A DNA stretch of 64,000 nucleotides, from NCBI RefSeq assembly GCF_055900595.2, contig NZ_CM148325.1; one strand, given 5' to 3'. This document shows, piece by piece, positions 3,299 to 54,743 of this stretch. A program made the position numbers and the translations under genes. The notes beneath the pieces were generated by a model. The model searched no databases, had not been told where the DNA came from, and worked only from the letters and a program-made list of their open reading frames with translations. Every line of letters begins with the position of its first letter. Position 1 is the first letter of the stretch.

Positions 3299-5581
3299 AT
3301 GTCCGAGCTTAATGAAAAGTTAGCCACAGCCTGGGAAGGTTTTACCAAAGGTGACTGGCAGAATGAAGTAAACGTCCGTGACTTCATTCAGAAAAACTAC
3401 ACTCCGTACGAGGGTGACGAGTCCTTCCTGGCTGGCGCTACTGAAGCGACCACCACCCTGTGGGACAAAGTAATGGAAGGCGTTAAACTGGAAAACCGCA
3501 CTCACGCGCCAGTTGACTTTGACACCGCTGTTGCTTCCACCATCACCTCTCACGACGCTGGCTACATCAACAAAGCGTTGGAAAAAGTTGTTGGTCTGCA
3601 GACTGAAGCTCCGCTGAAACGTGCTCTTATCCCGTTCGGTGGTATCAAAATGATCGAAGGTTCCTGCAAAGCGTACAACCGCGAACTGGACCCGATGATC
3701 AAAAAAATCTTCACTGAATACCGTAAAACTCACAACCAGGGCGTGTTCGACGTTTACACTCCGGACATCCTGCGTTGCCGTAAATCCGGTGTTCTGACCG
3801 GTCTGCCAGATGCTTATGGCCGTGGTCGTATCATCGGTGACTACCGTCGCGTTGCGCTGTACGGTATCGACTACCTGATGAAAGACAAATACGCTCAGTT
3901 CACCTCTCTGCAGGCTGATCTGGAAAACGGCGTAAACCTGGAACAGACTATCCGTCTGCGCGAAGAAATCGCTGAACAGCACCGCGCTCTGGGTCAGATG
4001 AAAGAAATGGCTGCGAAATACGGCTACGACATCTCTGGTCCGGCTACCAACGCTCAGGAAGCAATCCAGTGGACTTACTTCGGCTACCTGGCTGCTGTTA
4101 AGTCTCAGAACGGTGCTGCAATGTCCTTCGGTCGTACCTCCACCTTCCTGGATGTGTACATCGAACGTGACCTGAAAGCTGGCAAGATCACCGAACAAGA
4201 AGCGCAGGAAATGGTTGACCACCTGGTCATGAAACTGCGTATGGTTCGCTTCCTGCGTACTCCGGAATACGATGAACTGTTCTCTGGCGACCCGATCTGG
4301 GCAACCGAATCTATCGGTGGTATGGGCCTCGACGGTCGTACCCTGGTTACCAAAAACAGCTTCCGTTTCCTGAACACCCTGTACACCATGGGTCCGTCTC
4401 CGGAACCGAACATGACCATTCTGTGGTCTGAAAAACTGCCGCTGAACTTCAAGAAATTCGCTGCTAAAGTGTCCATCGATACCTCTTCTCTGCAGTATGA
4501 GAACGATGACCTGATGCGTCCGGACTTCAACAACGATGACTACGCTATCGCTTGCTGCGTAAGCCCGATGATCGTTGGTAAACAAATGCAGTTCTTCGGT
4601 GCGCGTGCAAACCTGGCAAAAACCATGCTGTACGCAATCAACGGCGGTGTTGACGAAAAACTGAAAATGCAGGTTGGTCCGAAATCTGAACCGATCAAAG
4701 GCGACGTCCTGAACTACGATGAAGTGATGGAGCGCATGGATCACTTCATGGACTGGCTGGCTAAACAGTACATCACCGCACTGAACATCATCCACTACAT
4801 GCACGACAAGTACAGCTACGAAGCCTCTCTGATGGCGCTGCACGACCGTGACGTTATCCGCACCATGGCGTGTGGTATCGCTGGTCTGTCCGTTGCTGCT
4901 GACTCCCTGTCTGCAATCAAATATGCGAAAGTTAAACCGATTCGTGACGAAGACGGTCTGGCTATCGACTTCGAAATCGAAGGCGAATACCCGCAGTTTG
5001 GTAACAACGATCCGCGTGTAGATGACCTGGCTGTTGACCTGGTAGAACGTTTCATGAAGAAAATTCAGAAACTGCACACCTACCGTGACGCAATCCCGAC
5101 TCAGTCTGTTCTGACCATCACTTCTAACGTTGTGTATGGTAAGAAAACTGGTAACACCCCAGACGGTCGTCGTGCTGGCGCGCCGTTCGGACCGGGTGCT
5201 AACCCGATGCACGGTCGTGACCAGAAAGGTGCTGTAGCATCTCTGACTTCCGTTGCTAAACTGCCGTTTGCTTACGCTAAAGATGGTATCTCCTACACCT
5301 TCTCTATCGTTCCGAACGCACTGGGTAAAGACGACGAAGTTCGTAAGACCAACCTGGCTGGTCTGATGGATGGTTACTTCCACCACGAAGCATCCATCGA
5401 AGGTGGTCAGCACCTGAACGTTAACGTGATGAACCGTGAAATGCTGCTCGACGCGATGGAAAACCCGGAAAAATATCCGCAGCTGACCATCCGTGTATCT
5501 GGCTACGCAGTACGTTTCAACTCGCTGACTAAAGAACAGCAGCAGGACGTTATTACTCGTACCTTCACTCAATCTATGTAA
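3299..5581 (+). CDS. pflB: pyruvate formate-lyase (formate C-acetyltransferase 1)
   Basis: 760-aa ORF, recognisable PflB sequence including the C-terminal glycyl-radical motif region (RVSGYAV). Confidence 0.95.
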
Positions 5582-5620
5582 TTAGTTTTGACTGAAATCG
5601 TACAGTAAAAAGCGTACAAT

Positions 5621-5650
5621 AAAGGCTCCACGAAAGTGGGGCCTTTTTTA
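5621..5650 (+). terminator. rho-independent terminator after pflB
   Basis: GGCTCCAC-GAAA-GTGGGGCC hairpin followed by TTTTTT. Confidence 0.6.
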
Positions 5651-5772
5651 GCACGAGAGCCTTTTTTGTCAGCTATCTATACTTTAAGGTGACTGCCAAA
5701 ACAGACTCGACGTAGCCTTCGAGCTGCGCACCAACACGGCCTCAGATGGGCCACATCTGGAGAAACACCGCA

Positions 5773-6513
5773 ATGTCAGTTATTGGTCGCATTCACTCCT
5801 TTGAATCCTGTGGAACCGTAGACGGCCCGGGTATTCGCTTTATCACCTTTTTCCAGGGCTGCCTGATGCGCTGCCTGTATTGTCATAACCGCGACACCTG
5901 GGACACGCATGGCGGTAAAGAAGTTACCGTTGAAGATTTGATGAAGGAAGTGGTGACCTATCGCCACTTTATGAACGCTTCCGGCGGCGGCGTTACCGCA
6001 TCCGGCGGTGAAGCAATCCTGCAAGCTGAGTTTGTTCGTGACTGGTTCCGCGCCTGCAAAAAAGAAGGCATTCATACCTGTCTGGATACCAACGGTTTTG
6101 TTCGTCGTTACGATCCGGTGATTGATGAACTGCTGGAAGTAACCGACCTGGTAATGCTCGATCTCAAACAGATGAACGACGAGATCCACCAAAATCTGGT
6201 TGGAGTTTCCAACCACCGCACGCTGGAGTTTGCTAAATATCTGGCGAATAAAAATGTGAAGGTGTGGATCCGCTACGTTGTTGTCCCAGGCTGGTCTGAC
6301 GATGACGATTCAGCGCATCGCCTCGGTGAATTTACCCGTGATATGGGCAACGTTGAGAAAATCGAGCTTCTCCCCTACCACGAGCTGGGCAAACACAAAT
6401 GGGTGGCGATGGGTGAAGAATACAAACTTGATGGTGTTAAACCACCGAAGAAAGAGACCATGGAACGCGTGAAAGGCATTCTTGAGCAGTACGGTCATAA
6501 GGTAATGTTCTAA
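5773..6513 (+). CDS. pflA: pyruvate formate-lyase activating enzyme (radical SAM)
   Basis: 246 aa from [20 protein letters not shown]; CxxxCxxC radical-SAM cluster motif ([10 protein letters not shown]). Confidence 0.93.
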
Positions 6514-9833: not shown

Positions 9834-10982
9834 TTACACGTGAGCAACGGGTTTCGGCGTATGACCGGCGTTGCGAAGCAGCATCAGCAAATAGATAAAC
9901 GATACGCTGGCGATCATGATAAACAATAAATTATCGGAGAAATTCTGCATTAGCATGGCAGTAAATGACGGGCCAAGCAGACTTCCCACAGTATAGCTCA
10001 ACAGTAAGGCCTGGTTCATCGCCACCAGTTGATGATGTTCAACTTTCTCGCAAGCCCATGCCATCGCCACCGGATATAGCGTAAAGCCAGCGGCACCGAG
10101 GATGAATAACGCTGGGGCCATCGCCGCCTGGCTAAGCATCGCGATACTGCCGAGAATGACGACAAAGACCTGGACACGCAACACCAGCAGTCGACCAAAC
10201 TTATCCGCCAGACGTCCAATCGGCCATTGTCCAAGGATACCCGCACTGACCAGTACCGCCATCCAGAAACCAATGCTGGCATTGCTCACCCCTTTGTGAT
10301 TGAGGTACAGCGGCATCAGGCCATATAGAGATCCCAGAACGATTCCTGAGATAATGCAGCCATTCACGCCAAGCCGCGCCTGACGGAGTTTTAGCATGGA
10401 CGTAATTGACGTCGAATCATGGTTTTCAGCCTGCTGATTCAGCACACGCGTAAACAACAGCGGTAAGATCCCTGCCAACGTCAAACCTGTAACCCACGGC
10501 AATACGGACATCAGCTCGGTTGAAACTTTGCTGACCAGTAACTGGCCTAAAAACGTTCCCACGTAATAAACCATCATATACGCAGCAAGCAAACGCCCAC
10601 GGTTACGTGACGTCCCACTGCACATCAGCGCGCTCTCAACAACCACCCAAATCATGGCACAGCCGACGCCGGCGACAAAACGCCACGCCAACCAGCTCCA
10701 GAATCCAATCATCAGGCCAAGGCCGGCACAGCCAGCGGCAAAAATGAAGGAGGCCAGATAATAGCTGCGGTTAAAGCCAATGCGCTTAATGACATACCCT
10801 GTCAGCAATGTACCGACCAGGTTGCCGGTAAAATAGGATGAGCTGACAACGCCTACCTGCCATGTGGACATATGTTCCTGGGCGAGCCAAAGCGGCACGA
10901 GTGTATTTAACACTGCGATCGCCAAAGTCAACAAAAGCAGGCCAGACAGCAAAAGCATGACAGGCCGGGTATACGTGGACAT
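9834..10982 (-). CDS. ycaD: MFS transporter
   Basis: 382-aa 12-TM protein in conserved position. Confidence 0.85.
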
Positions 10983-11296
10983 GAATTAAAACCGTGAGGA
11001 AGTTCAAATTTCATGCGCATCATGCCACCGCCAAAAACATTGTCAATGGGTGAAAATACGCGCATATCGCAGCTGAGGTATTATCGATTTATATTACTCA
11101 TTCATAACGCTAATGCTGGAGAGACGATTAATCTCATCTGATTGTTTTTATTGATCTAACACAAATTTCATACGCTTCGTTCAGTCGAAAAATTTCATGG
11201 TCACAGCAAACTCATATTTCCCGTCTATGCTTTCAGAGCAATGCATCGCGTCTGACCGATTTCAGACGTACCGCTGACTCTCGAAAGGAGAAGAGG

Positions 11297-11923
11297 ATGA
11301 CCAAACCGTATGTTCGTCTCGATAAAAATGATGCTGCCGTTTTGCTTGTTGATCACCAGGCTGGTTTACTTTCCCTTGTACGGGATATTGAACCCGATAA
11401 GTTTAAAAATAACGTGCTGGCGCTGGGCGACTTAGCTAAATACTTCAACTTACCAACAATTCTTACTACCAGTTTTGAAACCGGCCCTAACGGCCCATTA
11501 GTTCCGGAACTGAAAGCACAGTTCCCTGATGCACCTTACATTGCTCGCCCGGGAAATATTAACGCCTGGGATAACGAAGATTTTGTGAAAGCGGTAAAAG
11601 CGACAGGTAAAAAACAATTGATTATCGCTGGTGTGGTAACCGAAGTTTGCGTTGCGTTCCCGGCACTTTCGGCAATTGAAGAAGGGTTTGATGTCTTTGT
11701 CGTGACTGACGCGTCAGGAACCTTTAACGAAATTACCCGGCACTCGGCGTGGGATCGAATGTCGCAAGCGGGTGCGCAATTGATGACATGGTTCGGCGTG
11801 GCGTGCGAGCTGCATCGCGACTGGCGTAATGATATTGAAGGACTGGCGACGTTGTTCTCTAACCATATTCCTGATTATCGTAATTTGATGACCAGTTATG
11901 ACACGTTAACGAAGCAGAAATAA
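11297..11923 (+). CDS. ycaC: isochorismatase-family hydrolase
   Basis: 208-aa ORF, conserved position between ycaD and dmsC. Confidence 0.85.
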   Translation: MTKPYVRLDKNDAAVLLVDHQAGLLSLVRDIEPDKFKNNVLALGDLAKYFNLPTILTTSFETGPNGPLVPELKAQFPDAPYIARPGNINAWDNEDFVKAVKATGKKQLIIAGVVTEVCVAFPALSAIEEGFDVFVVTDASGTFNEITRHSAWDRMSQAGAQLMTWFGVACELHRDWRNDIEGLATLFSNHIPDYRNLMTSYDTLTKQK

Positions 11924-11928
11924 AAGAG

Positions 11929-11950
11929 AACCGGGGCCGAAACCCCGGTT
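11929..11950. terminator. bidirectional terminator between ycaC and dmsC
   Basis: AACCGGGGC-CGAAA-CCCCGGTT hairpin. Confidence 0.55.
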
Positions 11951-11958
11951 GTTACTCA

Positions 11959-12822
11959 TTAACTTGCGACGGCCATCCCCACGGTCATATGCAAACCATA
12001 GAATACGCCACGACCGATTAATTCCCCTGCCAGAAGCAGAATGAATGATACGGAAAGTAGCGGAACCGCAGGCTGATAACCTTTTAGCTGTGGTGCAATC
12101 CACAAGCACAGGGCAACAGCCAAAAGCACGATCCGCCAGGACATCAGCGCACCATAGTCCGGCACCAGCGCTGCGGCCTGCTGCACAGAGCTATGAATAG
12201 TCGCCAGCTCTGCGCCCTGCATCACTGACACCTCGCCACTCACTACCAGGGCCAGTACAGAAATAGCTGGCAGCAGACGCATCGCCCAGCCATCGACGCC
12301 AGCCAGACTCAGTAACAGGTAACCCAGTAACGGGCCGCCCATGAACATCGTCAGGAAGAAGCCCATCGGTGTCCAGATGCTGTACCAGGTGGGTACGGTA
12401 TCGATGCTGTTATAGACACGCACCATCATCCAGACAAAGACTACGCCAAGAACCATCGTCACCACCAGCCACAGCGTACGCAATGCCGGTGACAGCTTTT
12501 TCAGCATTGCCAGTAACCAGCCGATGCCACCAACAGCAAAAAAGATCGAACCGCTGGCGATTTCGTTACTGAGTGCTGAAGCCCCTACCCGGTTGAGCGA
12601 GTTAAAGGCGCGCATCGGTGAACCAAGATGAAGCATAGAGGCGATAAAGCCAATACCCATCAGCACCCATAAGCCAAACATGCAGGCAATAACACGCTGC
12701 TGGGCTTCTGCTCGCAGGTCGCCTTTGAGCAGCGCCAAAGCCAGAACGATAAAACCACCTGCTACACATTGCCCGAAGACCGTGAAGATCATCAGCGGCC
12801 ATTCATGCCATCCACTTCCCAT
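11959..12822 (-). CDS. dmsC: DMSO reductase membrane anchor subunit
   Basis: 287 aa from MGSGWHEWPLMIF; 8-TM protein downstream of dmsB. Confidence 0.9.
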   Translation of the reverse strand: MGSGWHEWPLMIFTVFGQCVAGGFIVLALALLKGDLRAEAQQRVIACMFGLWVLMGIGFIASMLHLGSPMRAFNSLNRVGASALSNEIASGSIFFAVGGIGWLLAMLKKLSPALRTLWLVVTMVLGVVFVWMMVRVYNSIDTVPTWYSIWTPMGFFLTMFMGGPLLGYLLLSLAGVDGWAMRLLPAISVLALVVSGEVSVMQGAELATIHSSVQQAAALVPDYGALMSWRIVLLAVALCLWIAPQLKGYQPAVPLLSVSFILLLAGELIGRGVFYGLHMTVGMAVAS

Positions 12823-27136: not shown

Positions 27137-27638
27137 GAGCCACTTTAATGATTTATGCCAGATCAATCGTGAAGCTGAAGAAAAACGCGCTGAGGCAGCT
27201 CAAATTTTGCGGGATGAAGCGGCAAGGCTGATTGATTTCTATGAAGAATGGCTGGGGCTTCCATCCATGTACTGGGAAGACGATGATGGCGACCTGCACC
27301 GCTACGTGGAGACAGGCTTGCCATGTAAGACAGCGGCGGATTTTAGTCCTCTTTCAGTCCACAATATCGCATCTGCACCAGACAATATTTTCCGCATGGC
27401 CGTGCGAACCTGGGTTAAGTCATCTGACAGCAGCTACCCGGTAAGCGTGGTTATTGCACTTGAATTATATTCAGTAGATGCGGAACGGGTGTCTCTGAGA
27501 GTCCGGGTGGAAGACGATATTTCTGTTCGCGTATTTATCAATAAACCCAGCGAAGAAGCCTGGGGCGATGTTGTTATGCACATGAAAAAGCACATCGCTA
27601 ATCACCTGAAAAAGCGAGCGCCATCAGCACTTCGTTAA
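27137..27638 (+). CDS. hypothetical cargo protein (167 aa; possibly 237 aa from 26925)
   Basis: strong RBS AAAGAGGA before MSHFNDLCQ; occupies the P2 tin/old position next to the portal gene. Confidence 0.5.
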
Positions 27639-27654
27639 GCAGAGCTGGAGAGTC

Positions 27655-27677
27655 GGGGCATAAATTTTTTATGCCCC
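27655..27677. terminator. hairpin GGGGCATAAATTTTTTATGCCCC between cargo gene and portal gene
   Basis: perfect inverted repeat between convergent genes. Confidence 0.5.
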
Positions 27678-27704
27678 GGCGAAGCAGCAGACAAGCGAAG
27701 CGCG

Positions 27705-28760
27705 TCAGGATATGGGCTGGGTGTCTAACAGTGCGTAAGGGTTAAAACGGATCACCTCTTCGCCCAGCCAGTCGTTGACGTGTTTCATTGCTTCCATGAC
27801 GGGCATCAGTTCGTTAATGGCAAACACACGGGCTGCCTTCTCCACATCCCCGAATGACCCCTTCTCACCCGGCATGGCCCCCATCAGCTGCGGCGGTACA
27901 CGGTGCACGGACAGCACATCATCACGCGATGCAGCCTTGACGTTCATGAACTCATCCTTTGCGGTGATTTGCTGAAACGGCAAAATCTGTACGCCATCCT
28001 TACCACCTCCCGCCGCGTGGATGAGCAGATTTTTAAACGCCCCGCCACCACGCGCGCTTTGCAGTGTTTCCCGCAGTTTTTCCATGCTTTCACGGTCAAC
28101 CTGCGCCGCACCGATGTAGACAATACAGCCCGCGTGTGAGCCGTTATCGTAGTAGAGCTTGCGGAAGATATCGGCGGAATGTGACAGGCTGGCAGACAGC
28201 AGGCCGCCCAGGTAATCCGGCATCCCGTAAATCTCCTGGTTGATATCAGGATTCATCAGGTGGCATATCGTCCCCTCACGAAAGCGGTACTCTTCCTGTC
28301 CTTCCTGTATATACCACCATGATTTCATATCGCTGCCACGTCGCATGTATTTCGCCAGCGCCCGGCGCAGGGCCAGCGGTTCGCCAAGCATGTTGCGCCG
28401 CAGCTCAAGACAGGCATTACCGAACACAAACCAGTCCATCGCCACCCCGGCGAACTCCTGGCGGGACAGCAGAGGATGTGGAATATAGCAGCCCAGCAGC
28501 ACATTACGTTTGAAGCTGAGCGCCGACTGGTGCCAGGACGTCTGGCGGGCAGCCCGTGCCAGTCCGTACCAGTCAACGGGCGTTTCAAACCACCGCCCGT
28601 TGTCGGCGCAGTACATGCTGTCCAGCAGGTCGGCCCCTGACAGCCGGTAAGGTCCTTCAAACGTGAAGGCACTCAGTGTCGGGTCGCTTCGCAGGGAATC
28701 CGCAAGGCTGCCCTGCGCTGCGCGGGCGTTCGTACGTCGTTGTTTATTTTTTCTGCTCAT
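27705..28760 (-). CDS. Q: portal protein (P2 gpQ family)
   Basis: 351 aa, size and position match P2 Q upstream of terminase P. Confidence 0.8.
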   Translation of the reverse strand: MSRKNKQRRTNARAAQGSLADSLRSDPTLSAFTFEGPYRLSGADLLDSMYCADNGRWFETPVDWYGLARAARQTSWHQSALSFKRNVLLGCYIPHPLLSRQEFAGVAMDWFVFGNACLELRRNMLGEPLALRRALAKYMRRGSDMKSWWYIQEGQEEYRFREGTICHLMNPDINQEIYGMPDYLGGLLSASLSHSADIFRKLYYDNGSHAGCIVYIGAAQVDRESMEKLRETLQSARGGGAFKNLLIHAAGGGKDGVQILPFQQITAKDEFMNVKAASRDDVLSVHRVPPQLMGAMPGEKGSFGDVEKAARVFAINELMPVMEAMKHVNDWLGEEVIRFNPYALLDTQPIS

Positions 28761-42023: not shown

Positions 42024-42043
42024 AATGCGGCACATTACCTTCA
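42024..42043. terminator. bidirectional hairpin between convergent G and U (GTGCCGCA-AGAA-TGCGGCAC)
   Basis: perfect 8-bp stem. Confidence 0.5.
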
Positions 42044-42529
42044 CATCAGATCATTTACGCCGCTTACTGTGGTATTCCAGACCGAACTTAACTTCCCTTT
42101 CATTCCCGAAAGCATATCAGACACCGGCGACGAGGCCATACTCTCCCGCAAATCCTCATCACAGCGTTCCAGACTGACAGTGAACTCAATTTTTTTGGCC
42201 TTACCGTGGCGGTCAAGTTCGCTTCGCGTTGTGCGGACAGCCGTTATCACATACATGCCGTATATCTGCCCCACACCGTCAATCAGCGGCCATGGGCGAC
42301 CAGTGTAAGCCTGCGTCGTTAAAAGGCTGAGGGAAACCTCACCGCCGGTAATTTCGGGATAAAGCACACCGGACAACGTGATCTGGTCGTCACCCGCCCC
42401 GATATACTGCCAGCTGGCCGAACGATTGATGCGTTCATTTTTAACGTGGCGCCAGGTTTTATTATGTTGCAGTTGTTGATGAGGCAGCGTACGCAACTCA
42501 AAAACAAACATGCCGTAAATCATCATCAT
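42041..42529 (-). CDS. U: tail protein U
   Basis: 162 aa, P2 U-like (MMMIYGMFVFELRTLP...). Confidence 0.85.
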   Translation of the reverse strand: MMMIYGMFVFELRTLPHQQLQHNKTWRHVKNERINRSASWQYIGAGDDQITLSGVLYPEITGGEVSLSLLTTQAYTGRPWPLIDGVGQIYGMYVITAVRTTRSELDRHGKAKKIEFTVSLERCDEDLRESMASSPVSDMLSGMKGKLSSVWNTTVSGVNDLM

Positions 42530-42540
42530 GCGAGGTACTC

Positions 42541-45500
42541 CTAATCTCTGTCACGGAAACTACCGACTGTCTGGCGGATACGGCGTTCCATTTCCGCACG
42601 GACGGCATCACCCACCATTTTTGCCAGTTCGCGCGGGTTTTGCGTGTGAACATCATGCAGGTGAATATGCAGTTCGCCAGTTAATCCCCATGGTGCCGGC
42701 TCACTCTGGCGCGGTCGGGGCGATGCGGGGGATATGGGCTGGCGCACAGCCTCAACCACCGGACGGGATGTTGCCGCCATCACTGGTGTCATTAGCGGGG
42801 AGAACGTCGGCATGACATCGTGAGTCATAACCGGTTTGATCACCGGCGGAACCACTGGCGTAATATTACCGGACAGTACCGGACGGACGACCGGAGGAAT
42901 AACCGGCACATTATTCACGGACACCACCGGCTTCACGACCGGCGACACGTTCGCCGTGGTGGATATCAGCGGCGAAACACTGACAGGCGGTGGCGCTGGC
43001 AGCGGTGGCAACGAAGGCACACTGACCGACGGCACCTGCGGCAGTCTGACAGGTGGCTCACTGACACTACCCGGTAACAGGGAAGCTGCTCGGTTAAAGC
43101 GTTCCTCCTTCCACTCACCACGAACGGCCAGCGCTTCCGGCAGGTTTTTAAAGATAATATCGCCGGGACCAGCGCGTTTTTTCGCCTGTTTCGCCTCATC
43201 CAGCAGACCACCGGTGTTATCGACGATTTTGTTCAGGCGGCGCATAGTGCCGGTATTCTCCCCCGTCAGGGGTGGTTGCCCCCCTTTGGGTTTTTCGCCG
43301 TCTTTTTTATCCTCGTCCTTTTTCGGCGGATTAATGACGTTAACATCCGCCAGAAGCATGGCAGCTTTCTCGTTCAGCAACTCCTTCTGTTTTAGTTCTT
43401 CCGCCTTTTTCCGGGCGCGCTCAACCGCCGACGGAATCAGCCCGAGTTTTTCCAGCACCCGGGTTAATGAGTCAATCAGCAGCGTAACCGGACCGGTCAC
43501 CAGATTGCTGATAAACTCCCCGACCTTCTGCCCGAACGTACGCCCGGCTTCCGTGCACTTGTCCAGCTCATCCTTTGTTGTGCTTACCGGCGCGAACAAA
43601 TCCACGAACCACTGCCACACACGCCCGATTGTCTGCCCGACATACTCAAACAGCGGTCCCAGTGGTGCCACAGCCTCGCGCAGTGGCGTAAGCCCCTGCC
43701 ACAGGCCGGACAAGAACCCGCCCACGACAGCCTTCAGCTGGTCCCAGTGCCGCCAGATAAGCACTGCCGCACCGACCAGTGTCGCCACCACAAGGCCCAC
43801 CGGACTTAACAGAAAACCCAGCGCCCCGCCAAGTGCGCCCACCGCACCACTCACCATCCCCCACAGTGCGGGCAGACCTGACAGTCTGAGCGCCAGTATT
43901 CCGATACCGCGCCCCAGTGAAATCAGTGCGCCGCCAGGTGAAGTGAACGCAGCCAGCAGACCACCACGCAGCGCGCCAAGTCCCGCCTGCACACCACGAA
44001 GCCGCCCCGCAACTACGCCCAGCAGTGCAGCAAACCGTCCGGCACCGGAGGTGATACCGACAAACAGCACGCGCCAGCCACCGATACCGCCCAGCGGACC
44101 ACCGAGTACGCCGCGCAGCTGCGTCAGTAACGGCAGCGCACGACCGAGGCCGGATGTGCCGGTCAGCAGGGCAAACCCAAGACGCAGTTTTGCCAGCGGC
44201 CCCATCAACACACCAGTGGCAAGTGACAGCGCCCCCATGGCCGCAACCGCAGCCAGCAGTACACCACCGGCAATCAGCAGTTGTTTTGTCAGTTCAGGGT
44301 GCGCCTGAGCCAGCGCGGTGACTTTCGCAATAACCCGGGTGAACGACTGCGTGACAGAACGCAGCGGCCCGTCAACGAGGTCAGCGACACGGATACGCAG
44401 TCCTTCCCATGCGCTGTTCAGTGATTTCAGGTCACCGTCCAGGTTATCAGCCATAACACGGGCAGTGTGATTAAGTTCCCCGGTGGCCAGTTCAATCTCC
44501 TGCGTAAGACGGGGAAGATTATTTTCCCCCGCCGCAGTGACAAGATTCATCAGGGAAACATAGGACTCCTGCCCGGCAATAGCCCTGAAAAAGGAGACCT
44601 GCGCGGCATTACCGTATTTTCGGGTGGCCTGGTACAGCTCATTCAGGATATTTTCCATCCGGCGCATGTTCCCGTAAGCATCCTGCGTCTCCACGCCAAG
44701 CTCTTTCAGTGCCATTGCAGCGGCCTTCGGCGGATCAACCAGACGTGACAGACTGGCACGCAGCGCCGTACCTGCATCACTTCCACGGATCCCCACACTG
44801 CCAAGGACACCCGTCATGGCTGCCGCCTGTTCAAGGGACAGGCCAAGTGAAGCTGCAACCGGACCCGTGTACTTCATGGTTTCACCCAGCGAACGGAGAT
44901 CCGTATTGGTTCGTGTGAAGGTGGCGGCCAGCGTGTCACCCACGCGATCCATCTGGTCAGCGGACAGACCAAACTGTGTGAGGATATTCGAACTGATATC
45001 GGCAGTCTGTCCCAGGTCCATCCCTGCAGCCATTGCCAGATCAAGCACGCCGGGTAGCGCCGCCTGTATGGCCTGTGGTGTGAAGCCGGCCATGGCAAGG
45101 AACGCCTGACCGCTGGCAGCATCACCGGCGGTAAACTGCGTTTCAGAGCCCAGCTTAATGGCCTGTTCGCGCAGCGCCTTAAACTGCGGACTGTTTTTGT
45201 CAATACGGGTCAGCGCCTGGACGCGCGACATCTCCTTACCAAAACTGACCGCCGGTTGCAGGAAACGTCCGGCCGCATAGCCGCCTGCCGCCGCCGTACC
45301 AACCGCCGTAAGTCCGACCGTTTTAAGTTTTCCCGCCGTCTCCTGAGCACGGGAATATTGCTGGCGTGCCTGCGTGACACGTGCCAGCGCCTGCCGTTCG
45401 CGTTCCAGCTGGTCGTTGTATTGCTGTGTTCGCCGTATGGCCTGTTGAATGGTGTTGTCACTGCCGGAAAGCGCAATACCGTGGCGCCGCAGCTCACCAC

Positions 45501-45852
45501 CCAGTTCGCGCATTCGCTGAACTTCACGCGCACGGACCTCATTGAGACGCTCAAGTTTGAGGCTCAAATCGTTCATCAGCTTTTTCTGTTTGTCAGACAG
45601 CACGGTTCCGGCGCGCTGAATTTGCTGAAGTGCGCTTAACTGGCGTTGCGCCCTGACAATGCCGTTTCCGGCCTTGTTTGCAGCCTCGCGGGCGCGATCA
45701 AATGAACGGGCGTGGCGTTCCAGGTTTTTGATCGCACCCTGCGTTCTCTGTATGGAGTCGCCAAGCTGGCCCATCATGCGACGGGCGTTTTCGGTGGGAC
45801 GGGTCAGCCTGTCAACAGCGCTGAAGGCGACCCGTATATCAAGCGTTTTCAT
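42541..45852 (-). CDS. T: tail tape measure protein (P2 gpT family), extended
   Basis: about 1100 aa; start taken at MKTLDIRVAF where E' terminates; C-terminal Pro/Val-rich repeat region. Confidence 0.85.
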   Translation of the reverse strand: MKTLDIRVAFSAVDRLTRPTENARRMMGQLGDSIQRTQGAIKNLERHARSFDRAREAANKAGNGIVRAQRQLSALQQIQRAGTVLSDKQKKLMNDLSLKLERLNEVRAREVQRMRELGGELRRHGIALSGSDNTIQQAIRRTQQYNDQLERERQALARVTQARQQYSRAQETAGKLKTVGLTAVGTAAAGGYAAGRFLQPAVSFGKEMSRVQALTRIDKNSPQFKALREQAIKLGSETQFTAGDAASGQAFLAMAGFTPQAIQAALPGVLDLAMAAGMDLGQTADISSNILTQFGLSADQMDRVGDTLAATFTRTNTDLRSLGETMKYTGPVAASLGLSLEQAAAMTGVLGSVGIRGSDAGTALRASLSRLVDPPKAAAMALKELGVETQDAYGNMRRMENILNELYQATRKYGNAAQVSFFRAIAGQESYVSLMNLVTAAGENNLPRLTQEIELATGELNHTARVMADNLDGDLKSLNSAWEGLRIRVADLVDGPLRSVTQSFTRVIAKVTALAQAHPELTKQLLIAGGVLLAAVAAMGALSLATGVLMGPLAKLRLGFALLTGTSGLGRALPLLTQLRGVLGGPLGGIGGWRVLFVGITSGAGRFAALLGVVAGRLRGVQAGLGALRGGLLAAFTSPGGALISLGRGIGILALRLSGLPALWGMVSGAVGALGGALGFLLSPVGLVVATLVGAAVLIWRHWDQLKAVVGGFLSGLWQGLTPLREAVAPLGPLFEYVGQTIGRVWQWFVDLFAPVSTTKDELDKCTEAGRTFGQKVGEFISNLVTGPVTLLIDSLTRVLEKLGLIPSAVERARKKAEELKQKELLNEKAAMLLADVNVINPPKKDEDKKDGEKPKGGQPPLTGENTGTMRRLNKIVDNTGGLLDEAKQAKKRAGPGDIIFKNLPEALAVRGEWKEERFNRAASLLPGSVSEPPVRLPQVPSVSVPSLPPLPAPPPVSVSPLISTTANVSPVVKPVVSVNNVPVIPPVVRPVLSGNITPVVPPVIKPVMTHDVMPTFSPLMTPVMAATSRPVVEAVRQPISPASPRPRQSEPAPWGLTGELHIHLHDVHTQNPRELAKMVGDAVRAEMERRIRQTVGSFRDRD

Positions 45853-46002
45853 GCTCTGCGTTCCCGCTGCGAAGGGCCGCCCGCTCACGCCAGGCGACCA
45901 CCTCGCCGGGATCCATCAGGAAGATTTCAGCGGGAGACCAGTTGAAAATAACGGCGATATCCGCCACAAAGTCTTCAATGTGCTCAAAGGGCACGACGGT
46001 TA

Positions 46003-49817: not shown

Positions 49818-50030
49818 TTCTTTTGTGGTTATGGGGTCATCAGGAACCACGTGCAGATTATATTTTTGTTTTTTTGGCGTTCCTCCGGCAGCAACGAGTT
49901 CATCAATAAGACACTGACACGCCTGAACATCCCGGGCATGTCTTAGTTTCACCTTTATTGATTTAACCTTATCCTCACCGGAGGAGAAATGCAGTTCAAT
50001 CTCAATATCGTTTCTTCGGAACAATCTCAT
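49815..50030 (-). CDS. 71-aa hypothetical protein, intact copy of a repeated gene
   Basis: MRLFRRNDIEIELHFSSGEDKVKSIKVKLRHARDVQACQCLIDELVAAGGTPKKQKYNLHVVPDDPITTKE; decayed paralogues at 51101..51199 and 51784..51855. Confidence 0.55.
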   Translation of the reverse strand: MRLFRRNDIEIELHFSSGEDKVKSIKVKLRHARDVQACQCLIDELVAAGGTPKKQKYNLHVVPDDPITTKE

Positions 50031-50123
50031 ACGCCCCCTGAATATATCAGAAATACTAGTATCGAAAAATGAGAAAACAGTTAGACAGGAGAAACATATT
50101 AACACAAATCATTTATACCTATA

Positions 50124-50141
50124 GATGAAATTATAATTTCA
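50124..50141. promoter_or_regulatory. perfect 18-bp palindrome ATGAAATTATAATTTCAT with embedded TATAAT
   Basis: about 95 bp upstream of the 71-aa gene; related imperfect palindromes upstream of the decayed copies. Confidence 0.55.
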
Positions 50142-50250
50142 TTCATGAATATGATAGATAACTATATTGTGAACAAAATGAAAAATGGCTAAATTAAAAA
50201 TGGGCATGGAGGAATGCCCGGTTATCAATATAATGTGACGTAGATCATTG

Positions 50251-50281
50251 TTTTGCCCGCCGGAGAGCGGGCATTTTTTTT
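50251..50281 (+). terminator. terminator hairpin copy 2
   Basis: GCCCGCCGGAGAGCGGGC plus T7. Confidence 0.7.
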
Positions 50282-50450
50282 GCGCCTGCCATCGAGGCGC
50301 CTTCCCTGGCGCACACAAAGCAGCCCTGATTTTCCATGAAAACTTCAGGGTTGAGCTGCGGGCACAAAGTGAGTAGATTAGCTACGGGTACCTCCCCCTG
50401 ACAACAGGAAGGGTGTCCATTATCCATGATATACAAACGAAAAGTCTTGT
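50282..50450 (+). ncRNA. repeated ~170-nt structured module S1 (candidate small RNA)
   Basis: bounded by terminator hairpins; internal hairpins (GCGCC..GGCGC, CCCTGA..TCAGGG, CCTTCC..GGAAGG); four paralogous copies. Confidence 0.35.
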
Positions 50451-50481
50451 TTTTTGCCCGCCGAAGCGCGGGCATTTTTTT
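50451..50481 (+). terminator. terminator hairpin copy 3
   Basis: GCCCGCCGAAGCGCGGGC plus T-run. Confidence 0.7.
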
Positions 50482-50607
50482 ATGCATCAGACAAGATACA
50501 GCCCACCCCAACTGACACCTGAAATATTGCCGCAACAAAAAGAAACAGTTAAATTACGCGCGGGTGCCTTTCGGCTGATGGCCGGAGGGAAAACCTGAAG
50601 GCCGGAT

Positions 50608-50841
50608 GTGGAAAGGCCCCGGAAAACATTTCTGTTTAACCGAGGCCCTAACCGCATTACCTTGACAAGTGAAAGGTTAGCGCCTCTCCGGAAAAGGAGC
50701 AAGTGCTATGTCGCAAAAATCGCTTACGGCCATCACGTTCTGCGTGACGGCAATCCTCATCATCTGGATATTGCACGGTTCGCTGTGCGAAATACGGATG
50801 AGCTTCTGGGGAGCGGAGTTTGCGGCGTTCTTACAATGTAA
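50608..50841 (+). CDS. mok-like overlapping reading frame of hok locus
   Basis: 77-aa ORF starting upstream of and overlapping the hok-like frame, as in hok/mok/sok loci. Confidence 0.5.
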   Translation: MERPRKTFLFNRGPNRITLTSERLAPLRKRSKCYVAKIAYGHHVLRDGNPHHLDIARFAVRNTDELLGSGVCGVLTM

Positions 50842-50848
50842 GAAGTAA
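50708..50848 (+). CDS. hok: Hok/Gef-family type I toxin (intact)
   Basis: 46 aa MSQKSLTAITFCVTAILIIWILHGSLCEIRMSFWGAEFAAFLQCKK; single TM plus conserved SLCEIR motif; 5' GGGTGCCT (50552) complementary to 3' AGGCACCC (50906). Confidence 0.8.
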   Translation: MSQKSLTAITFCVTAILIIWILHGSLCEIRMSFWGAEFAAFLQCKK

Positions 50849-50934
50849 GGAAACCGCGACGGGGGAGCAATCCCCCGTCAATCGGTTGCCAGGGTAAGGT
50901 CGATAAGGCACCCTATCTCACAGACATGAACAAC

Positions 50935-50970
50935 AAACCCGCAGCATAAAAACTGCGGGTTTTCTTTTTG
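50935..50970 (+). terminator. rho-independent terminator of hok transcript
   Basis: AACCCGCAG-CATAAAAA-CTGCGGGTT followed by TTCTTTTT. Confidence 0.7.
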
Positions 50971-51100
50971 GTGTCCTCACCGACTTGAAACAGTGATCAG
51001 ACTATAAGACAAAGCCCGCAATGTTGCGGGCTTACTCTACCTCTCGAAAATGTGGTCACTGCGTGGACATACGCTGATACAAATCCTTTATATCAATAAA

Positions 51101-51199
51101 TTAAATCTTTGTTTTTTTCATCAACAATGATTTAACCTTATCCTCACCGGAGGAGAAATGCAGTTCAATCTCAATATCGTTTCTGTGGAACAGCCTCAT
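51101..51199 (-). pseudogene. truncated paralogue of the 71-aa gene
   Basis: MRLFHRNDIEIELHFSSGEDKVKS then divergent and stop after 32 codons; retains AGGAGG RBS. Confidence 0.55.
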
Positions 51200-51414
51200 A
51201 AGACAACCTCCTGAATTCATCAGAAACACAGTCAACTGAAAACCAGAAAGCAGACAAACAGTGGACACACATTAATACAAATCATTTATACCTATAGATG
51301 AAATTGCAGTTTCATCTATAACATGACAGGTAACAATATTGTGAAAAAACTCAAAACTCGTTAGATTAAAGACGGACAGAGCAATGCTACTTTATCAATA
51401 ACATGTAACCTGTA

Positions 51415-51445
51415 CTTCCTTATTTTGCCCGCCGAAGCACGGGCA
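51415..51445 (+). terminator. terminator hairpin copy 4
   Basis: GCCCGCCGAAGCACGGGC plus T-run. Confidence 0.7.
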
Positions 51446-51621
51446 TTTTTTTTGCGCCTGCCATCGAGGCGCCTTCCCTGGCGCACACAAAGCAGCCCTG
51501 ATTTTCCATGAAAACTTCAGGGTTGAGCCAAAAGCACAAAGACAGTAGATTAACCACGGGTGCCTTCCACCTGACAACAGGAAGGGTGTCCAGTATCAAT
51601 GACAGACAACTCACATTGCTG
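51446..51621 (+). ncRNA. structured module S2
   Basis: paralogue of S1. Confidence 0.35.
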
Positions 51622-51651
51622 TTTTGCCCGCCGGAAAGCGGGCATTTTTTT
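51622..51651 (+). terminator. terminator hairpin copy 5
   Basis: GCCCGCCGGAAAGCGGGC plus T-run. Confidence 0.7.
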
Positions 51652-51783
51652 ATTCTTTTGTGGTTATTGGGTCATCAGGAACAACATGCAGATTATGCTT
51701 TGATTTTTTTGGTGTTATTACAGCAGCAACGAGTTTATTAATAAGACACTGACATGCCTGAACATCCCTGACATATCATAATT

Positions 51784-51855
51784 TCACTTTATTTTTTTAG
51801 CTTGTCCTTTCTGGAGCAGAAATATCTCAACATCGTTTCTGTGGAACAACCTCAT
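51784..51855 (-). pseudogene. decayed paralogue of the 71-aa gene
   Basis: MRLFHRNDVEIF then frameshift; 3' region still alignable to the intact copy. Confidence 0.5.
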
Positions 51856-52071
51856 TTGCCCCTGAATGTATCATAAATATCAGCATCGGAAAACCAACAG
51901 CAATACAGAAGAAACATGTTAATGCAAATCACTTATACCTATAGATGAAATTACAGTTTTGTTCATAAATATGATAAGTAACTATATTGTGAATAAAATG
52001 AAAACTAGCTAAATTAAACGTGGGCATGGTGGAATGCCTCGTAATCAATAATACATGATCCGTACTTCCTT

Positions 52072-52102
52072 GTTTTGCCCGCCGGAAAGCGGGCATTTTT
52101 TT
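52072..52102 (+). terminator. terminator hairpin copy 6
   Basis: same hairpin. Confidence 0.7.
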
Positions 52103-52270
52103 GGCGGTTACCATCGCCTCACCTTCCTGGTTCACATGAAGCAACCCTGATTTTCCATGAAAACTTCAGGGTTGAGACAAAAGCACAAAGACAGTAGATT
52201 AACCACGGGTACCTTCCACCTGACAACAGGAAGGCTGTCCAGTATCAATGACAGACAACTCACATTGCTG
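52103..52270 (+). ncRNA. structured module S3
   Basis: paralogue of S1/S2. Confidence 0.35.
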
Positions 52271-52299
52271 TTTTGCCCGCCGGAAAGCGGGCTTTTTTT
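52271..52299 (+). terminator. terminator hairpin copy 7
   Basis: same hairpin, T-run after GGGC. Confidence 0.7.
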
Positions 52300-52471
52300 G
52301 GCAGTTATCATAGCCGCACCTTCCTGGCACATATGAAGCAACCCTGATTTTCCATGAAAACTTCAGGGTTGAGACAAAAGCACAAAAACAGTAGATTAAC
52401 CACGGGTGCCTGCCACCTGACAACAGGAAGGGGTGTCCATTATCCATGATATACAAACGAAAAGTCTTGTC
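52300..52471 (+). ncRNA. structured module S4
   Basis: paralogue, 3' end like S1. Confidence 0.35.
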
Positions 52472-52501
52472 TTTTGCCCGCCAAAGCGCGGGCATTTTTT
52501 T
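52472..52501 (+). terminator. terminator hairpin copy 8
   Basis: GCCCGCCAAAGCGCGGGC plus T-run. Confidence 0.7.
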
Positions 52502-52712
52502 ATGCATCAGACAAGATACAGCCCACCCCAACTAACACCTGAAATATTGCCGCAACAAAAAGAAACGGGTGCCTTTCGGCTGATGGCCGGAGGGAAAACC
52601 TGAAGACCGGATGTGGAAAGGCCCCGGAAAACATCTGTGTTTAACCGAGGCCTGACCCTTCCTACCGTGACAAGTGGAAGGTTAGCGCCTCTTTGTAAAA
52701 GGAGCAAGCGCT

Positions 52713-52853
52713 ATACCGCAAAAAACGATTATTGTTGGCATTTTATGCCTGACAATAACCCTGGTCATCTGGATGGTCCACGATTCGTTATGTGAATTCA
52801 GCTTTGATATCTGAGGAGCGCGTTTTGCGGCGTTCTTGCAGTGTAAACCGTAA
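52713..52853 (+). pseudogene. hok-like toxin pseudogene (second copy)
   Basis: paralogous to 50708..50848 but start codon is ATA and an in-frame TGA replaces the Trp codon; mok-like frame 52613..52795 retained. Confidence 0.7.
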
Positions 52854-52948
52854 GAAACCGCAGCGGGGGAGAAATTCCCCGCTATCCGGTTGTTGGGGTG
52901 GGCCGATATGGCGCCCTTTCCCTGTAGAGACAAAACAAAAAACCAGAT

Positions 52949-52975
52949 TTGCCCGCCATTGAGAGGGCTTTTTTG
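52949..52975 (+). terminator. degenerate terminator hairpin copy 9
   Basis: GCCCGCCATTGAGAGGGC plus T6. Confidence 0.45.
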
Positions 52976-53003
52976 TCACCCTCACCAGTGAGGGCATCAT
53001 CAT

Positions 53004-53231
53004 TCAGAGGCGCGTAAGCCACCCGGCGTTAACATCCTGCCTGTCAACCCTGGCCGCAGAGTCTGAACGGCAGGTACCGGAAGGAGTACCAAAAACATCC
53101 CTGACAAGTTCCGCCACCTTCCCGATATCATCAGGTGTCACATTCCTCACCTCGGCCGTGATCCGTGGCGTACCATCATCGTTAACAAGAGTGGCTTTAA
53201 AGCTGGTGCGAAGGGAAAACAACATCAACAT
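53004..53231 (-). CDS. hypothetical small protein at prophage end (75 aa)
   Basis: RBS AGGGAGGGG upstream of ATG; last ORF inside the att boundary. Confidence 0.4.
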   Translation of the reverse strand: MLMLFSLRTSFKATLVNDDGTPRITAEVRNVTPDDIGKVAELVRDVFGTPSGTCRSDSAARVDRQDVNAGWLTRL

Positions 53232-53385
53232 CCCCTCCCTTTGGTTCGTTGCACTGACGGCACGACACCATCAGGAAAAAGAAAAGCCCACAACGTCAGT
53301 ATTGTGGACTTTTTTCTTCAAAGATGGACATTATCTGGACACATGAAAATAAAATCCATTTATTTTCATATAGTTAAGTACCATG

Positions 53386-53400
53386 CAAAAGCGCCCGCAG
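53386..53400. repeat. att core copy, serS-proximal (forms the serS terminator hairpin)
   Basis: AAAAGCGCCCGCAGG identical to 16092..16106; continues as GCGCTTTTT. Confidence 0.8.
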
Positions 53401-53429
53401 GCGCTTTTTAGATTCAGAAAAATTGGGTA

Positions 53430-54743
<1,314 letters not shown>

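Follow-up and report, generated by a model that had tools for sequence, protein, structure and literature searches.

The closest described counterpart to the protein considered here, a tape measure protein (TMP), is that of Escherichia phage P88 (Xuanwuvirus, Peduoviridae; YP_009113088.1, 935 aa). It is 68% identical over the full length, with an alignment starting at residue 1, and shares the gene order, a conserved motif and a C-terminal module, between which it carries a short Pro/Val/Ala-rich spacer holding the likely ancestral unit PVVAASSRPVAEAIRSPV. The P88 spacer is however about 61-63 aa long, compared with about 140 aa in the protein described here, and the central hydrophobic region of the P88 protein is shorter by 87 aa. 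The gpT protein of phage P2 (NP_046782.1, 815 aa; 31% identity) has the same TP901-type core and the same position in the tail operon, but neither the GPGDIxFKNLP motif nor a spacer, and it continues for 99 aa after the LEKLG motif, as opposed to 299 aa here. The last 40 aa of gpT display a comparable strand-helix-like pattern (EYHISLTGG...LQDALEKYERDKRARARASMMHDG), and this visual likeness suggests homology of the two terminal modules; a BLASTP comparison of the C-terminal 65 aa of gpT with the last 239 aa of the present protein gave no significant alignment.

Outside the P2-like phages, siphophage TMPs also change in length through duplication and loss of repeated units (Belcaid et al. 2011, PMC3271669), but these 11-residue repeats belong to the helical ruler part, carry Phe/Trp markers and scale with tail length (PMC3271669; PMC8616913). 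The spacer described here has periods of 4 and 16 aa, a Pro marker and a position between the body and the putative terminal docking module, and contains no tandem 11-aa units with aromatic markers. As for the C-terminus itself, the terminal helix and extended tail of the Pa193 TMP bind the tail tip and hub (PMC11456595), and in phiTE the puncturing apparatus is bound by C-terminal TMP residues (PMC11972413). Pa193 gp41 (residues 840-858) and the phiTE TMP both end in an amphipathic helix with a short extended tail behind it, an arrangement predicted at aa 1073-1103 here; no sequence similarity to either was detected, and hub docking of the present protein would follow by analogy.

The gene was analysed within a window of 64,000 nucleotides (RefSeq assembly GCF_055900595.2, contig NZ_CM148325.1), which contains the following features of the tail operon:

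42541-45852, minus strand: TMP gene, 1103 aa, stop codon at 42543-42541 (from the open reading frame list and translation)
45839-45994, minus strand: GpE', the frameshift part of the tail chaperone; open reading frame; identical loci carry the annotation 'GpE family phage tail protein'
42041-42529, minus strand: gpU-like tail protein; open reading frame, WP_000979935.1 ('phage tail protein') in identical loci, positioned as P2 U
44248-45285, minus strand: TP901-type tape measure core domain, aa 190-535 (TIGR01760), with PF10145 inside it at aa 228-427
43753-44304, minus strand: central Gly/Ala/Leu-rich hydrophobic region, aa 517-700 (composition scan and alignments)

The minus-strand frame is uninterrupted from 42541 to 45888 (1115 codons); its first start is a GTG at 45888, while the conserved ATG at 45852 yields the 1103-aa product. 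The start of the gene overlaps the end of GpE' by 14 nt, the gpU-like gene is the immediate downstream neighbour, and the minus-strand order sheath, tube, E, E', T, U is annotated identically in the identical loci, in P2 and in P88. The product matches PF10145 (180 bits, cut-off 33.2, 6.1e-53, aa 228-427), TIGR01760 (262 bits, cut-off 28.8, 6.7e-78, aa 190-535) and phrog_28 (6.8e-182), and the identical protein is found in NCBI/UniRef on 173 contigs under the name 'phage tail tape measure protein'. The gene is the intact TMP of a P88-like (Peduoviridae), P2-like E. coli prophage. A preliminary description, made from the sequence alone, had already called the product a tape measure protein and set its length of about 1100 aa against about 815 aa for P2 T; the domain matches, the location between gpE/E' and gpU and the lengths found (1103 and 815 aa) confirm this.

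The C-terminal part of the protein is organized as follows:

43108-43170, minus strand: conserved motif GPGDIIFKNLPEALAVRGEWK at aa 895-915, which bounds the spacer upstream
42688-43107, minus strand: Pro/Val-rich spacer, aa 916-1055, 140 aa, 24% Pro and 19% Val (from composition; missing from aligned relatives)
42943-43092, minus strand: Ser/Pro/Val-rich first half of the spacer, aa 921-970, containing degenerate 8-aa (24-nt) units PPVRLPQV / PSVSVPSL / PPVSVSPL
42751-42942, minus strand: four tandem 16-aa (48-nt) units, aa 971-1034, PVVKPVVSVNNVPVIP / PVVRPVLSGNITPVVP / PVIKPVMTHDVMPTFS / PLMTPVMAATSRPVVE
42688-42798, minus strand: last unit and tail of the spacer, aa 1019-1055, PLMTPVMAATSRPVVEAVRQPISP..., aligning with the short spacer of relatives (alignment A5, columns 258-300)
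42544-42687, minus strand: conserved C-terminal module, aa 1056-1103, 48 aa, with the strand ELHIHLH, a helix and a terminal GSFRDRD

The preliminary description had reported a C-terminal Pro/Val extension at 42541-43200 and attributed to it the excess length over P2 T. The repeat segment is real, but it is internal: the interval takes in the motif (aa 895-915), the spacer and the 48-aa module (aa 1056-1103), the Pro/Val portion alone being 42688-43107. The repeats explain only part of the 288-residue excess over P2 gpT, in which 140 residues are Pro/Val-rich, about 100 belong to the central hydrophobic region and about 60 to the region of the motif. The central region comprises 181 aa in the window TMP, 94 in P88 and 81 in P2 T; its aa 573-659 (87 aa), missing from P88, are found in most relatives, among them P0057 and phiT5282H.

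Both boundaries of the spacer are conserved. The motif that precedes it, GPGDIIFKNLPEALAVRGEW, has the family form GPGDIxFKNLPxALAVRGEW; its columns G98-P108 are invariant in alignment A5, its G/I/F residues are invariant across 29 diverse relatives, and a pattern search with it brought up 31 genome loci and 440 viral loci. The module that follows is kept in all relatives aligned and consists of an alternating-hydrophobic strand, ELHIHLH, and a predicted helix (aa 1073-1096, 42565-42636) with AlphaFold pLDDT of 76-90, so that the window TMP has the P88-like C-terminal architecture of motif, spacer and strand-helix module ending in GSFxDxD. Pairing of the strands DIIFKN of the motif and LHIHLH of the terminus, which would reduce the spacer to a simple loop, was looked for in AlphaFold monomer models of long and short forms, built on shallow alignments, and these contained no strands. 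The HxHxH strand was also considered as a metal site and rejected, relatives carrying FQLVFN or IEINIH at this place.

Within the spacer, 33 of the 140 residues are Pro and 27 are Val, and these two account for 60/140 positions, compared with 9.8% elsewhere in the protein (binomial tail 1.7e-24); 11% of the spacer residues are charged. The AlphaFold model shows no secondary structure along the spacer (pLDDT 44-63). The segment is also repetitive, with a best off-diagonal self-alignment score of 173 against 70 +/- 12 in shuffles, a self-identity z-score of 5.3 at offset 16 and over-representation of multiples of 4, the dominant periods being 16, 12, 8 and 4. These statistics and the Pro/Val enrichment substantiate the repeated PVV/PPV units reported earlier, and the peptide quoted for them, VSPVVKPVVSVNNVPVIPPVVRPVLSGNITPVVPPVIKPV, is located at aa 969-1008. 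The 24-nt units of the first half form a direct repeat family (D1) at 71% identity. The 16-aa units are degenerate and based on a P-V-V-x tetrad, with Pro kept at positions 1, 5 and 13, aliphatic residues at positions 2, 3, 6 and 7, only one aromatic residue among the four units and pairwise nucleotide identities of 46-69%. DNA copies 48 nt apart are detectable at 63-75% identity, and Tandem Repeats Finder (TRF) finds only one array in the window, 12 bp x 2.5, which indicates that the duplications are old. The segment at aa 1019-1055, in which PV is invariant or almost so in the alignment columns shared with the short spacers, is, judging from this alignment, the likely ancestral unit. Tandem duplications of 8-aa and 16-aa units, in frame and going back to the ancestral P-V-V-A-A-S-R-P-V unit, have lengthened the linker.

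The length of the spacer sets the window TMP apart from the family, in which it spans 34-72 aa in more than 100 relatives, compared with about 140 aa here. Representatives of 24 Enterobacterales species have spacers of 39-72 aa; a set of 20 diverse cluster representatives, drawn from 74 matches in 1.8 billion proteins, ranges over 34-68 aa with a median of 50; and 76 of the 80 IMG/VR loci fall at 44-61 aa. Of the 1419 E. coli genomes in which the family occurs, about 1390 have the short form, and no phage record with a long spacer was found in the INPHARED collection. Long forms have nevertheless arisen repeatedly. The CM2-type E. coli allele has a spacer of 216 aa owing to an extra 231-nt duplication at 72-80% identity. 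In E. coli strain 1439 (complete genome; WP_200145770.1, 1005 aa) a 105-nt unit is present three times, giving a spacer of about 131 aa, and in the contig IMGVR_UViG_2541047897_000007 (1110 aa) six times, giving about 236 aa. These P88-type arrays are in-frame expansions at exactly the same spacer, but they are recent (98% identity among the 35-aa units), and their unit is longer and takes in the end of the motif (GEWQERK...), whereas the units in the window are old, shorter and diverged. Expansion is recurrent and in frame, and the P88-type array arose independently of the window/CM2 type, in a separate lineage. The window-type protein occurs in 22 complete genomes from several continents, and its locus lies inside complete prophages at two different chromosomal sites; together with the 173 contigs that carry the identical protein, this implies that the TMP is viable. 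The TMP gene is a recombination mosaic, as revealed by comparison of the window and CM2 alleles, whose spacers differ by only three substitutions, two synonymous and one non-synonymous, too few to test selection.

The segment is an internal low-complexity linker, the short form of which is present in the P88-like relatives surveyed; it constitutes neither a novel domain nor a novel activity. Signatures of an enzyme or of a folded domain are absent from it, and the frame stays open through the linker to the conserved terminus. The only unusual aspect left is the 2- to 4-fold expansion. Overall, this is best explained, with a probability of roughly 0.5, by an expanded, passive and extended tether between the TMP body and the C-terminal module that adds little or nothing to tail length. 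The linker would join the body, ending in the motif, to the strand-helix module, whose helix, by analogy with other myophage TMPs, may dock the TMP trimer on the baseplate hub or spike (gpD/gpV). It would then run in the lumen at the baseplate end as a proline-stiffened tether, for which a minimum of about 35 aa is apparently needed while surplus length would be tolerated as slack, and would exit the tail together with the remaining TMP when the phage infects. A tether of minimum length is expected to produce a sharp lower bound and rare long outliers, as seen in the distribution of spacer lengths. The narrow range in most relatives could equally reflect a functionally tuned length; if so, lengthening the spacer 2- to 4-fold would be expected to show a phenotype. 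In addition, the P-aliphatic-aliphatic-x regularity retained across old, diverged units hints at more than neutral slack.

It is possible, though unlikely, that the extra residues instead extend the ruler: placed between the hub and the remaining TMP in the lumen of the tube, they would push the N-terminal end outward. Window-type tails would then be longer than P88-type tails (about 80 extra residues measure about 12 nm as a helix and as much as about 25 nm in extended form), and repeat copy number would act as a natural tail-length dial. The tail of P2 is about 135 nm long. P88, whose TMP has 120 residues more than P2 gpT, all of them after the LEKLG motif and exactly in this C-terminal region, has a tail of 137-140 nm (PMC5285337). 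Since P88 (935 aa) and P2 (815 aa) have tails of about the same length, the spacer region probably contributes little to the ruler, the compared lengths being rough negative-stain estimates from different laboratories. In favour of a ruler, tail length is set by the length of the TMP, and in other TMPs the number of repeats scales with it (PMC3271669; PMC8616913); the spacer belongs to the same chain, its proline-rich sequence cannot pack compactly as a helix, and stepwise variants with 1, 3 and 6 copies exist. The known ruler repeats, however, are of the aromatic-marked, helical 11-aa kind. The gene itself is ordinary, and its value lies in the allelic series of otherwise similar P2-like prophages whose TMPs differ only in the length of one presumably hub-proximal linker, 61, about 131, about 140, 216 or 236 aa, which would permit a direct test of whether residues at the baseplate end count in the ruler of a contractile tail and of the role of the poorly understood C-terminal part of TMPs.

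A more speculative proposal, which we regard as improbable, is that the spacer is a natural copy-number-variable length module, the proline-aliphatic repeats of the trimeric TMP forming an ordered, extended rod. Such a rod would either change tail length stepwise or set the periplasmic reach of the ejected TMP. If true, E. coli P2-like phages would tune tail or injection geometry by repeat slippage.

A role after ejection is likewise quite improbable. The proline-stiffened repeats would here serve as a rigid rod that spans the periplasm or threads the peptidoglycan, like the TonB spacer, or would offer a handle to chaperones or prolyl isomerases of the periplasm, with a longer spacer aiding DNA delivery in particular hosts. 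The periplasmic spacer of TonB is proline-rich, with alternating runs of Glu-Pro and Lys-Pro. Both are proline-rich, non-globular and presumably extended segments of proteins that act in the cell envelope, but the spacer described here is aliphatic (Val/Ile/Leu/Met), has few charges and lacks X-Pro runs of the EP/KP type, and no homology was found between them. The TMP does leave the P2 tail at infection (bioRxiv 10.1101/2023.02.25.529910), and HK97 injection is reported to depend on the TMP together with a periplasmic chaperone and an inner-membrane protein (Cumby et al. 2015); the regular pattern kept by the diverged units and the concentration of long alleles in poultry-associated strains would also fit. 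The poultry bias, however, could stem from sampling or from clonal spread, since the same 5,067,659-bp genome accounts for eight records, and a search for homologues of the Pro/Val segment alone returned just two fragments, both from the same E. coli TMP lineage. Searches of the PMC and bioRxiv literature yielded no description of a proline-rich TMP spacer.

The suggestion in the preliminary description that the C-terminal part may carry an additional lytic, binding or enzymatic activity in a distinct domain is very hard to sustain. Some TMPs do have muralytic domains, for example the CHAP domain of phiCbK (PMC3556154), but the last 194-219 aa match no Pfam or NCBIfam family and, in PHROGs, only families of unknown function that are themselves TMP C-terminal fragments, while the whole protein has no Pfam/NCBIfam family beyond the core domain and no catalytic domain (lysozyme, LT, M23 or CHAP). 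In the PDB, the full protein found matches confined to the N-terminal and central portions of other TMPs (9g8s, 9m8o), and a search with a C-terminal module profile brought up nothing but designed helical repeats, an uninformative result; the spacer is low-complexity, repetitive and devoid of predicted secondary structure, and relatives do not retain the His residues of the HIHLH strand. Relatives of 990-1043 aa without a distinct C-terminal domain largely settle the matter against the suggestion.

The idea that the gene is decaying or mis-assembled, with the Pro/Val stretch as untranslated junk past a truncation, can practically be dismissed, because, although RefSeq (PGAP) labels the long alleles pseudogenes ('incomplete; missing C-terminus') and leaves at least the final 735 nt unannotated in long-type genomes, and although strain 135 has a real 10-nt deletion splitting the TMP gene, the frame is unbroken in the window, in CM2 and in 23CRST011, the conserved module follows in frame beyond the spacer, every insertion is a multiple of 3, the same sequence recurs across many independent complete assemblies, GenBank and UniRef list the full-length TMP, and pN/pS across the gene is 0.12-0.27. 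In practice, intact genes with long spacers are being reported as truncated pseudogenes, and complete prophages can therefore look defective in surveys of prophage intactness. An antisense open reading frame of 490 aa (42836-44308) was taken to be a by-product of the GC-rich coding strand.

The interval 42541-43200, described in the preliminary description as a C-terminal Pro/Val-rich repeat extension of a tape measure protein (TMP), lies in the 3'-terminal part of one long ORF, and the repeats form a defined spacer within its product.

42541..45888, minus strand: single long ORF, from the ORF list
42688-43107, minus strand: Pro/Val-rich spacer, aa 916-1055, defined by composition

The start codon of the TMP is the ATG at 45852, which is common to all relatives. 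The final part of the gpE' ORF overlaps this codon, precisely the arrangement annotated at identical loci. The resulting product of 1103 aa agrees with the approximately 1100 aa previously estimated, and the 815 aa quoted there for P2 T is the actual length of P2 gpT, which is 31% identical to the window protein. Profile searches matched the protein to PF10145 (6e-53) and TIGR01760 (7e-78), the surrounding gene order is sheath, tube, E, E', T, U, and the host prophage is complete and P2-like, its insertion site in E. coli lying between dmsA and serS; the nearest characterised relatives, with 68% identity, are the TMPs of P88-like phages (Xuanwuvirus, Peduoviridae). The product of 42541-45852 is a true TMP. 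The GC richness and codon bias of the coding strand probably account for a 490-aa antisense ORF with a TTG start that lies opposite the TMP gene (42836-44308, plus strand).

The Pro/Val repeat region is real and statistically solid, as originally reported: 33 Pro and 27 Val account for 60 of the 140 spacer residues, compared with 9.8% Pro plus Val elsewhere in the TMP (binomial tail 1.7e-24), and the best off-diagonal self-alignment score is 173 against 70 +/- 12 for shuffles. Identity peaks at an offset of 16 residues (z = 5.3), with offsets in multiples of 4 dominating; in the four 16-aa units at aa 971-1034, positions 1, 5 and 13 are consistently Pro and each Pro is followed by aliphatic residues. 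The Ser/Pro/Val part upstream carries 8-aa units. Because the units are only 46-69% identical at the DNA level and are barely detected by TRF, the duplications are old rather than products of recent slippage.

The spacer is not a C-terminal extension but is internal: it is directly preceded by the motif GPGDIIFKNLPEALAVRGEW and followed by a 48-aa module, GLTGELHIHLHDVHTQNPRELAKMVGDAVRAEMERRIRQTVGSFRDRD, conserved in every relative examined. Nor do the repeats account for all of the extra length, since only 140 of the 288 residues by which the TMP exceeds P2 gpT belong to the spacer, with about 100 in a central Gly/Ala/Leu-rich hydrophobic region (81 aa in P2, 181 aa in the window) and about 60 in the motif region that is missing from P2 T. 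Relatives of considerable length do exist, typical TMPs of the family having 970-1043 aa, and these carry no Pro/Val expansion. An 87-aa Gly/Ala/Leu-rich stretch (aa 573-659, 43876-44136) is missing in P88 and present in most relatives, and is thus a deletion in P88. The TMP gene as a whole is a recombination mosaic; the window allele and that of strain CM2 have a synonymous divergence of 0.40 across the TP901 core domain (44248-45285), against 0.02-0.08 for the N-terminal part, the hydrophobic region and the spacer.

Spacer length, measured as the distance from the motif to the last 48 residues, was compared across relatives.

Spacer length in TMPs
24 TMPs from Enterobacterales species-representative genomes: 39-72 aa
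20 diverse representatives out of 74 matches in a 1.8-billion-protein library: 34-68 aa, median 50
76 of 80 IMG/VR loci: 44-61 aa
Window: 139-140 aa

Across the family, the distribution breaks off sharply near 35 aa at its lower end and has its mode at 45-65 aa; far longer spacers are rare outliers. Both flanking elements are found in TMPs of 1419 of 5426 complete E. coli genomes, nearly all with the short form. At least 80% of the long query is covered in 26 complete E. coli genomes: 22 have the window-type allele, three have a still longer one, and one has a 10-nt deletion. One further record, Br_112_kylling, carries another variant covering 73%. The longer allele (CM2, 23CRST011 and CS5L) has a 216-aa spacer arising from an additional 231-nt segmental duplication with 72-80% identity. 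No long-form spacer was found among isolated phages of the phage collection searched, and the Pro/Val segment searched alone has no detectable relatives beyond this E. coli lineage. Chicken or poultry-associated E. coli are over-represented as sources of the long-spacer alleles, which may reflect clonal sampling; eight records are the same 5,067,659-bp genome.

Near-perfect tandem arrays of a different, 105-nt (35-aa) unit occupy the same site in other P88-type TMPs.

4143-4772, IMG/VR contig IMGVR_UViG_2541047897_000007: 105-nt array
3494-3808, locus L121, a second P88-type TMP: 105-nt array

The IMG/VR protein, of 1110 aa, carries 6.0 copies of the unit (GEWQERKIAQVSKPAPAINITPVVPAPLPPALVPG) with 98% identity; three copies occur in five complete E. 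coli genomes, including strain 1439, where the TMP is annotated as intact (1005 aa), and a single copy in about 1330 genomes. The array is thus a copy-number polymorphism within a structural gene. It arose independently at the same place, so in-frame tandem expansion recurs in this spacer, for which lengths of about 61, 131, 140, 216 and 236 aa are known. It is established that siphophage TMPs evolve in length as 11-aa aromatic-marked repeats are duplicated or lost, and the number of these repeats scales with tail length (PMC3271669; PMC8616913). In contrast, the repeats in the window have periods of 4 and 16 aa, are marked by Pro and adjoin the proposed docking end instead of lying in the helical ruler; the TonB proline-rich spacer is alike only in being proline-rich and probably extended. 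The spacer or its polymorphism is not described in the open-access papers and preprints searched, a scope that makes this weak evidence of absence.

Taken together, the spacer is a low-complexity, duplication-expanded linker in a structural protein, with a conserved element on either side. AlphaFold modelling of aa 798-1103 for the long form and of the P88 short form leaves the spacer without secondary structure (pLDDT 44-65) and predicts a confident helix at aa 1073-1096 (pLDDT 76-90). The predicted shape of the module matches that of the solved TMP C-termini of the myophages Pa193 (PMC11456595) and phiTE (PMC11972413). There the extreme C-terminus consists of a helix and a short, extended tail and is bound to the tail tip and hub in the baseplate. 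By analogy, the module would dock there and the spacer would tether this docked end to the TMP body in the lumen. Such a tether would have to reach a minimum distance and would tolerate slack, which agrees with the length distribution, with its lower limit, mode and rare long outliers. We assign this passive-tether reading a probability of roughly 0.5. The long forms are found in strains from several continents, within complete prophages inserted at two sites in the chromosome, and this spread implies that they are viable.

That extra spacer residues act as a ruler and lengthen the tail is less probable than the passive tether. A large effect is opposed by the P88 TMP, which exceeds P2 T by 120 residues, every one of them in this C-terminal region, yet supports a similar tail length, by an admittedly crude comparison. 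The P2 tail is about 135 nm long. The P88 tail measures 137-140 nm (PMC5285337). A post-ejection role, in spanning the envelope or as a chaperone handle, is less probable still. The chief use of the spacer is that its lengths form a natural allelic series in which to test the contribution of the hub-proximal end in a contractile-tail tape measure.

Nothing points to the additional activity raised as a possibility for the Pro/Val part, and a distinct enzymatic C-terminal domain is very improbable: the last 194-219 aa have zero matches in Pfam and NCBIfam and in PHROGs match only families of unknown function that consist of TMP C-terminal fragments, solved structures gave no informative match by sequence or by profile, and secondary structure is not predicted in the spacer. 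Rather than a terminal domain, the Pro/Val region is an internal linker that has expanded. A metal site at the HIHLH strand was rejected: relatives have FQLVFN or IEINIH there, so the strand is an alternating-hydrophobic one.

In RefSeq, PGAP calls long-spacer alleles "incomplete; missing C-terminus" pseudogenes, leaving the 3' 0.7-1.7 kb (the last 735 nt or more) unannotated.

42541-43650, window: long-spacer allele called pseudogene
10770-12312, long-spacer locus L003: same call
4696-6043, CM2-allele locus L004: same call
4276-6022, long-spacer locus L005: same call
27531-28659, long-spacer locus L040: same call

Despite this call, it is highly improbable that these are pseudogenes, and we rejected that reading: all ORFs checked are intact, every spacer insertion is a multiple of three, the conserved terminus stays in frame, and the exact protein occurs on 173 contigs, named as TMP in GenBank and UniRef. 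Such calls on intact TMPs could make complete prophages seem defective. A genuine frameshift is present in E. coli strain 135 (NZ_CP080260.1, 2154238-2157539), whose otherwise window-type allele is 10 nt shorter over its final 735 nt and appears in the annotation as two TMP fragments.

The same TMP allele, with nearly identical tail genes, is found next to zapB/glpF in L003 and at dmsA/serS in L040 and the window, which indicates recent mobility or module exchange. Between the ogr/hok end of the prophage and serS, about 3.5 kb (about 49900-53430) contain no ORF above 110 aa, with GC down to 35-45%. No Rfam family reaches the gathering threshold there, and sequenced phages resemble this DNA hardly at all, with one match of 146 nt. 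Beside the related prophage at the other insertion site lies a comparable stretch, also unannotated (L003, 2568-4833).
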